DNA of 64,000 nt, taken from Escherichia coli (GTDB taxonomy: Bacteria > Pseudomonadota > Gammaproteobacteria > Enterobacterales > Enterobacteriaceae). The notes under the pieces were generated by a model that was not told the origin of the DNA, made no database searches, and saw only the letters and a list, made by a program, of their open reading frames with translations. The stretch lies in NCBI RefSeq assembly GCF_002854065.1, contig NZ_CP024147.1. One strand, written 5' to 3'. This document shows, in pieces, positions 753-21,899 of this stretch. Position 1 is the stretch's first letter. The number at the start of each line of letters is the position of its first letter. Position numbers and translations under genes: made by a program.

Positions 753-944
753 ATTTTCAGCTATGAACATCCCTGGCACAAAACGCCGGGGATTTTTTAT
801 ATCTGCGTTCCGCTAAAAACTGCAAATGATCAGGTTGTTGCAACGTTTTGCGCGACCGCTCGGGGAAGGCAAAACTGCCACAGGGAAAGCATTGCGCGGG
901 ATCCGGCACTCATCAACAATCGGGAAGTCAGCAAGGGGCTGAAA

Positions 945-1090
945 CGGGAAAGCCCCTCCCGAAGAAGGGGCCTTGTATAAGGAAAGGGTTATGATGAAGC
1001 TCGTCATCATACTGATTGTGTTGTTACTCGTAAGTTTCGCAGCTTATTAACAGCCAATCAGAGGGGGAGAAATCCTCCCTCACCCTTGTT
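945..1090 (-). ncRNA. sibD: Sib-family antisense sRNA overlapping ibsD (ends approximate)
   Basis: Established arrangement for Ibs/Sib loci: antisense RNA fully overlaps the toxin ORF; GCCCCT/AGGGGC hairpin near 948-975 could act as its terminator; ends not determinable from sequence alone. Confidence 0.4.
991..1050 (+). CDS. ibsD: Ibs-family type I toxin, 19 aa hydrophobic peptide (MMKLVIILIVLLLVSFAAY)
   Basis: ATGATG start after AAGGAAAGGG Shine-Dalgarno; 19 codons then TAA; below the ORF-track length cutoff, found by eye. Confidence 0.75.
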   Translation: MMKLVIILIVLLLVSFAAY

Positions 1091-1319
1091 CCTTTACTTT
1101 AGGTTGAAAAAAAATCAGCGTCAAGAAGGTTTCATTAACACATATCCCTGGCCCAAAAAGCCGGGGATTTTTTATATCTGCGTTCCGCTAAAAGGTGCAA
1201 ATGCTCAGGACGTTGCAGCGTTTTGCGTGACCGCTCGGGGAAGGCAAAACTGCTTCAGGGAAAGCGTTGCGCGGGGTCCGGCGCTCATCAACAATCGGGG
1301 AGTCAGCAAGGGGCTGAAA

Positions 1320-1465
1320 CGGGAAAGCCCCTCCCGAGGAAGGGGCCTTATAGAAGGAAAGGGTTATGATGAAGCTCGTCATCATACTGGTTGTGTTGTT
1401 ACTGTTAAGTTTCCCGACTTACTAACAACTCATCAGAGGGGGGAGAAATCCTCCCTTACCCTTGT
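1320..1465 (-). ncRNA. sibE: Sib-family antisense sRNA overlapping ibsE (ends approximate)
   Basis: Same as sibD, in repeat copy 2. Confidence 0.4.
1366..1425 (+). CDS. ibsE: Ibs-family type I toxin, 19 aa hydrophobic peptide (MMKLVIILVVLLLLSFPTY)
   Basis: Same architecture in repeat copy 2. Confidence 0.75.
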   Translation: MMKLVIILVVLLLLSFPTY

Positions 1466-1544
1466 TCCTTTACTCTAGGTTGAAAAAACAACAGCGTCAA
1501 TAGGCCTGCCATGTACGAAGCGAGATCTGTGAACCGCTTTCCGG

Positions 1545-9368: not shown

Positions 9369-9493
9369 GCCGGATGCGGCGTAAACGCCTTATCCGGCTA
9401 CATGTCAACGACAGTTGTAGGCCTGATAAGACGCGCAAGCGTCGCATCAGGCGTTGATTGCCGGATGCGGCGTGAACGCCTTATTCGGCCTAC
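9369..9493. repeat. REP/BIME cluster (three REP palindromes)
   Basis: gccggatgcggcgtaaacgccttatccggc, gcctgataagacgcgcaagcgtcgcatcaggc, gccggatgcggcgtgaacgccttattcggcctac. Confidence 0.75.
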
Positions 9494-21823: not shown

Positions 21824-21899
21824 GGCCCCTTAGCTCAGTGGTTAGAGCAGGCGACTCATAATCGCTTGGTCGCTGGTTCAAGTCCAGCAGGGGCCACCA
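21824..21899 (+). tRNA. ileX: tRNA-Ile (anticodon CAU, lysidine-type); island integration target
   Basis: 76 nt cloverleaf: acceptor ggcccct/aggggcc, anticodon loop ctCATaa, T-arm ggttcaagtcc, 3' CCA encoded; position between mug and yqjH. Confidence 0.85.

Follow-up and report, generated by a model that had tools for sequence, protein, structure and literature searches.

The region at the start of the window, by which we mean the whole 64,000-nucleotide stretch of Escherichia coli DNA that was analysed, is almost certainly the chromosomal ibsD/sibD-ibsE/sibE locus of this species, that is, two tandem type I toxin-antitoxin modules placed in the spacer between yqiK and hldE. This locus is already known and is an ordinary one. 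The yqiK gene is already open at the window start, its stop codon occupying 750-752, and hldE lies on the minus strand, read from 2978 down to 1545 with its stop codon at 1545-1547; the 790-bp spacer between them contains both ibs/sib repeat units. The position of the tandem pair between these two genes is the same as in K-12, and the annotations of K-12 and of strain CUWW06 bear out the placement of the repeats given in a preliminary description of this DNA. A megablast comparison of the segment 600-1700 with 5,426 complete E. coli genomes found it matched in 5,425 of them, the ibs/sib locus being present in about 5,416, and identified two genomes (strains 100416 and CUWW06) with 100% identity over the 1,101 nt. 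The annotation beneath the match reads yqiK, 'type I toxin-antitoxin system Ibs family toxin', ibsE and hldE, and the toxin coding sequences (CDSs) of the CUWW06 RefSeq record correspond to window positions 991-1050 (WP_001387081.1) and 1366-1425 (ibsE, WP_010723221.1). The earlier judgement that this was a known locus type was therefore correct, since an identical RefSeq record has the two toxin CDSs at these very coordinates. Furthermore, the alignment to the annotated ibsD/sibD and ibsE/sibE genes, which had been suggested as a check, was carried out, and the two units matched K-12 D and E column for column. It should be mentioned that the CUWW06 record, a product of the PGAP pipeline, carries both ibs CDSs without sibD or sibE ncRNA features; in comparison with this record, only the curated K-12 record has the Sib RNAs annotated.

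Each unit encodes a 19-residue toxin on the plus strand: ibsD at 991-1050, with the product MMKLVIILIVLLLVSFAAY, and ibsE at 1366-1425, with the product MMKLVIILVVLLLLSFPTY. These are exactly the coordinates at which 19-residue toxins of the Ibs type had been proposed. The peptides are identical at 19 of 19 residues to K-12 YP_002791256.1 (IbsD) and YP_002791257.1 (IbsE), the first of which is labelled only 'putative toxic peptide' in the K-12 record, and they matched the Pfam family Ibs_toxin (PF13956) over profile positions 1-19 of 19, with 40 bits for IbsD and 46 bits for IbsE against a cutoff of 27. For the Pfam and NCBIfam searches the query peptides were padded by 6 residues, given the 20-residue minimum, and the match comprised the 19 native residues only; with the padded peptides NCBIfam returned just a sub-threshold chance match to RC1041_fam (11.9 bits against a cutoff of 90). 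Upstream of the 991-1050 ORF lies the ibsD ribosome-binding site, AAGGAAAGGG. IbsD and IbsE differ at four residues (I9V, V14L, A17P and A18T). The preliminary description was right that the copies differ in toxin residues, including I versus V and AAY versus PTY, but it listed three of the four differences.

On the strand opposite to the toxins, a scan of the whole window with Rfam identified SIB_RNA (RF00113) twice on the minus strand, with 143.5 bits and an E-value of 9.9e-30 at 976-1124 and with 141 bits and an E-value of 4e-29 at 1351-1500, values well outside the range of chance. The gathering score of this family is 56, and both matches cover model positions 1-147 of 147, so that neither is truncated. 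Antisense Sib RNAs had been expected on the minus strand, and these full-length gene matches, collinear with K-12 sibD and sibE, argue that the expectation was sound. The match coordinates lie about 30-35 nt off the transcript ends because the model spans the sequence from the sib -35 element to just before the terminator; the ends of both RNAs were accordingly taken from the K-12 transcripts (145 nt for sibD and 144 nt for sibE) and carried across by alignment. The predicted sibD antitoxin RNA, of about 143 nt, thereby falls at 947-1089 and the predicted sibE antitoxin RNA, of about 144 nt, at 1322-1465, both on the minus strand. Read from 1089 to 947, sibD spans the whole ibsD ribosome-binding site and ORF on the opposite strand, and sibE, from 1465 to 1322, likewise covers ibsE at 1366-1425. 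A promoter scan placed the sibD promoter at 1096-1124 (minus strand; TTGACG, a 17-nt spacer and TAAAGT), coinciding with Rfam model positions 1-30, and the sibE promoter at 1472-1500 (minus strand; TTGACG, a 17-nt spacer and TAGAGT). The number of promoter-like sites in the region was three, against 0.6 expected. An extra promoter-like site at 1381-1408 on the minus strand (TTAACA, a 16-nt spacer and TATGAT, a 10/12 match) lies within the ibsE ORF and is probably a chance match; unit 1 has no promoter of this kind, its first hexamer there being TTACGA. The predicted folds of SibD (-53.4 kcal/mol, z of -4.3 versus shuffled sequences) and SibE (-51.8 kcal/mol, z of -3.6) consist of a body of several hairpins and, terminating the RNA on the 3' side, a GC hairpin of 11 bp, located at about 949-974 in sibD and at about 1324-1349 in sibE.

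The repeat search, the pairwise alignment and the alignment to the K-12 sibD and sibE units together delimited unit 1 (ibsD/sibD) at 748-1124 and unit 2 (ibsE/sibE) at 1123-1500. In the repeat search, 748-1047 paired with 1123-1422 at 88% identity over 300 nt with a spacing of 375, and 1063-1124 with 1439-1500 at 94% identity over 62 nt with a spacing of 376. Aligned globally, the two units are 89% identical, with 42 differences in 379 columns, and the similarity proper starts at about 769, the initial 20 nt or so of each unit being junction sequence. Two units of about 360 bp had been described; there are indeed two copies, and the length of about 360 bp fits their conserved part, but the period is 375-376 bp. 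With just two copies at a period of 375 bp, the ibs/sib region falls under the scoring of Tandem Repeats Finder, which gave no repeat there.

The plus-strand signals of the two units correspond to each other as well. At the 5' end of unit 1 the terminator scan identified a terminator-like hairpin with a T-run at 769-803 (ATCCCTGGCACAAAACGCCGGGGAT and TTTTTATATC), beginning 17 nt past the yqiK stop codon, and a second copy of it at 1144-1178, between the sibD promoter and the ibsE promoter, both on the plus strand. Shorter bounds, 769-793 and 1144-1168, are also given for the two hairpins. Judging from its position, the first hairpin probably serves to terminate yqiK transcription, in which case the duplicated segment would comprise the yqiK terminator, the ibs promoter, the ibs/sib pair and the sib promoter. 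The putative ibsD promoter (892-920, plus strand) consists of TTGCGC at 892-897, a 17-nt spacer and AACAAT at 915-920, and homology to unit 1 suggests a putative ibsE promoter at 1267-1295 with the same hexamers at 1267-1272 and 1290-1295 and a 17-nt spacer. The consensus promoter scan did not flag these ibs hexamers, whose 8/12 match is below its threshold. The ibsD mRNA, of about 160 nt, is placed at 927-1087 on the plus strand. Its start, at about G927, follows from homology to the mapped K-12 start, the K-12 ibsD +1 primers of Han et al. 2010 (PMC2943612) having been mapped onto the window; its 3' end at about 1087 is the end of the in vitro construct used in that work. The transcription start of ibsE is predicted at about G1302. 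A further terminator-like hairpin at 1532-1556 on the plus strand, composed of AACCGCTTTCCGGTT and then AGCCTTTTTT, extends over the hldE stop codon and could block plus-strand read-through from ibsE into sequence antisense to hldE. The anatomy of the two modules, their family membership, their identity with the K-12 genes and their synteny are established for the window.

As for function, the work of Fozo et al. 2008, in the account given by PMC2943612, describes five Sib RNAs of about 140 nt that are transcribed and abundant in K-12 and the opposite strands of which encode hydrophobic Ibs peptides of 18-19 residues; raised Ibs expression damages the envelope and is lethal, and constitutive Sib expression represses it. 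Overproduction of Ibs peptides in K-12, studied mainly with IbsC, causes inner-membrane depolarisation and growth arrest; upon IbsC overexpression the membrane was depolarised within minutes and the psp operon was induced (PMC8309996). The Sib RNAs recognise their cognate ibs mRNA only, by means of two recognition domains that are independent of each other: TRD1 forms pairs inside the ORF, and TRD2 does so in the region of translation initiation. Exchanging the domains of SibC for those of SibD re-targeted SibC to ibsD (PMC2943612). Han et al. 2010, with ibsD expression plasmids serving as the toxic targets, also showed that ibsD expression is toxic in K-12 and that its repression needs recognition of the SibD type (PMC2943612).

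By analogy with this K-12 literature, from which toxicity, constitutive Sib expression, repression and the roles of TRD1 and TRD2 are carried over, each module of the window may be expected to work as follows. A weak plus-strand promoter would produce an ibs mRNA of about 160 nt, the translation of which would yield the 19-residue, nearly all-hydrophobic IbsD or IbsE peptide. From the opposite strand, a near-consensus sigma-70 promoter would constitutively produce a Sib RNA of about 143 nt, perfectly complementary to the ribosome-binding site and ORF of its own ibs. Such complementarity follows from the overlap on opposite strands, repression itself having been shown in K-12 only (PMC2943612). 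Pairing would begin at two short patches, in the 3' portion of the ORF for TRD1 and immediately before the ribosome-binding site for TRD2, and would then spread and block toxin synthesis. Each Sib would act solely on its own ibs because the copies diverge most at these TRD1 and TRD2 patches.

The distribution of the differences between the two units fits the discrimination sites TRD1 and TRD2 of Han et al. 2010 (PMC2943612). Ten of the 42 differences fall within 46 nt made up of ibs codons 9-19 and the beginning of the 3' UTR, and two others, at 975 and 978, closely precede the ribosome-binding site; in the alignment of unit 1 with unit 2, the stretch from the ribosome-binding site to codon 8 contains zero differences. 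Han et al. replaced one triplet of SibC by its SibD counterpart, UGC (PMC2943612). We infer that UGC would pair with GCA, the codon for Ala17 of IbsD, at which IbsE has CCG for Pro; with the numbering mapped in this way, the AAY versus PTY difference would therefore sit in the TRD1 discriminator.

The TRD2 patch of the window is GTAT in the D unit (975-978) and ATAG in the E unit (1350-1353), and that of K-12 is ACAG in D and GTAT in E. The D unit of the window thus has the 4-nt patch that is found in K-12 E, and from the sequence the specificity patch looks swapped between slots, as by gene conversion or recombination. The exact 92-nt haplotype running from TRD2 to TRD1 is carried by 76 genomes in the case of unit 1 and by 411 in the case of unit 2, and O157:H7 strains were among the carriers of the window haplotypes. 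We considered whether the window allele was an unusual one and rejected the idea: it is a minority allele, but there are 76 and 411 carriers of its haplotypes and two fully identical genomes. In 30 genomes taken as evenly spaced rows of the ranked match list, six had a single ibs/sib unit at the locus, ST131 included. The TRD2 patch differed between the copies in all eight of the two-copy genomes sampled, a result that is compatible with selection for non-cross-reactivity and is also expected by chance, as there are four patch variants.

Other strains contain further toxin variants (…SFHAY, …SFQAY and L4F), and the alleles are not bound to one slot. Strains 300444 and 100248 have the …SFHAY and …SFQAY variants, with ibs ORFs at 552-611 and 928-987 of their extracted segments; CFSAN061770 (ibs ORFs at 532-591 and 909-968 of its extracted segment) carries …SFQAY in the yqiK-proximal slot and the IbsD-type …SFAAY in the hldE-proximal slot. 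The lone unit of the ST131 strain 4224, at 1201-1576 of the extracted segment, encodes MMKFVIILVVLLLLSFPTY, an L4F variant of IbsE.

A more general proposal is that TRD1, TRD2 and the toxin C-termini have been reshuffled between slots across strains by gene conversion or recombination, with selection against cross-reaction. We hold this only as a tentative idea, one we think somewhat unlikely. If it were true, the window would represent one such recombinant, with the E-type TRD2 of K-12 in the D slot, and the reshuffling would extend rather than alter the discrimination model of Han et al. 2010 (PMC2943612).

Two other interpretations of the repeats were weighed against that of a pair of intact ibs/sib modules. 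The minus strand contains a 65-codon ORF in each unit (813-1010 and 1188-1385), and these frames might be real genes, translated from read-through of the Sib transcripts and representing a third product of the repeat. Both units of the window have the frame open at 65 codons, as do 11 of the 17 units examined in nine strains, and in three more it is longer, at 95 and 101 codons; such openness is what little divergence between units produces. Among the same 17 units, two have a frame of 59 codons and one a frame of 27 codons, and in K-12 a frameshift in each copy results in products of 27 aa and of 59 aa, the latter with a different tail. Outside the Sib transcript the variable sites are spread evenly over codon positions 1, 2 and 3 (12 of 43, 12 of 44 and 12 of 44, respectively), without synonymous bias. 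Moreover, the ORF starts inside Sib without an upstream Shine-Dalgarno sequence, continues through the hairpin that terminates Sib (about 949-974) as well as through the ibs promoter, and is called neither in the K-12 nor in the RefSeq annotation. We consequently regard a coding role for these frames as extremely improbable; the frames exist, with the 65 residues reported for them, and their earlier designation as artefacts agrees with their want of a coding signature. A 130-residue plus-strand ORF at 1086-1478, which bridges the two units, was also rejected: the homologous frame in K-12 is only 76 aa, and the ORF likewise just reads across promoter, terminator and antisense sequence.

The other interpretation holds that both units are decaying, non-functional pseudo-modules of an ibs/sib duplication, retained only through linkage to essential neighbours. 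The single unit found at yqiK-hldE in about one fifth of the sampled genomes, the merely 'putative' status of IbsD in the K-12 record and the weakness of the ibs promoters could be read in this manner. Both ibs ORFs, however, are intact in every part (ribosome-binding site, start codon and all 19 codons) and encode proteins equal to those of K-12; the 19-codon ORF is kept in 17 of the 17 sampled units; and in both Sib genes the Rfam match extends over the full model, with promoter and terminator intact. To this must be added the toxicity of K-12 ibsD and its need for SibD-type recognition (PMC2943612). Decay of the units thus seems to us scarcely credible.

The remaining window, from yqiK to uxaC, is ordinary E. 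coli core chromosome. A tRNA at 21824-21899 on the plus strand, between mug and nfeF, was given a CAT anticodon (Met) by ARAGORN and Rfam and is tRNA-Ile in RefSeq, which we take to be the usual ambiguity of ileX, whose CAU anticodon is presumably modified to lysidine. Rfam also matched naRNA4 at 9420-9490 on the minus strand (79.3 bits), in the spacer between cca and bacA; as naRNA4 is a nucleoid-associated RNA derived from REP sequences, we read this match as an ordinary repetitive extragenic element. A match to the Rfam 'IS102' sRNA at 29928-30164 on the minus strand (71.5 bits) is antisense to ebgA and lies wholly within its CDS (28812-31904, plus strand).

Beyond its correct annotation, the significance of the locus is small, since it is a textbook type I pair that has been known from K-12 since 2008 and was dissected in 2010. 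It is worth pointing out that generic ORF tracks miss the 19-codon toxins and give the spurious 65-codon antisense frames instead; because PGAP omits the Sib RNAs and ORF tracks mislead in this way, this repeat family should be masked in scans. The allelic shuffling of the specificity patches and the copy-number polymorphism of one or two units represent modest population-genetic footnotes.

With regard to known systems, the closest counterparts are K-12 ibsD/sibD and ibsE/sibE themselves (b4664/b4447 and b4666/b4611), once known as the QUAD or SIB intergenic repeats. The gene order of K-12 MG1655, yqiK, sibD(-)/ibsD(+), sibE(-)/ibsE(+) and hldE, is that of the window, with strands and spacing alike. 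The IbsD and IbsE peptides are identical and the Sib RNAs agree in promoter, terminator and fold, whereas about 4-5% of the nucleotides differ, chiefly upstream of the ibs start, and K-12 carries one-base indels in each unit that the window does not have. The K-12 modules ibsA/sibA, ibsB/sibB and ibsC/sibC share with the window about 180 nt of core sequence, which begins at the Sib terminator, takes in ibs and ends with the sib -35 element, and are similarly composed of a hydrophobic toxin of 18-19 residues and a fully overlapping antisense RNA, but they are found at other sites, yegL-mdtA and fau-serA. The roughly 180 nt upstream of the core are common to D and E and unrelated in K-12 A, B and C; D and E therefore constitute a separate and more extensive duplication. 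The ldr/rdl, hok/sok, zor/orz and shoB/ohsC systems also combine a small hydrophobic membrane toxin with an antisense RNA and are often tandemly duplicated (PMC2943612, PMC8309996), although they belong to sequence families unrelated to ibs/sib. In those systems the antisense RNA overlaps the 5' UTR only or is divergently encoded, whereas Sib, in contrast to the antisense RNAs of ldr, hok, zor and shoB, spans the ribosome-binding site and the ORF of its toxin completely (PMC2943612).
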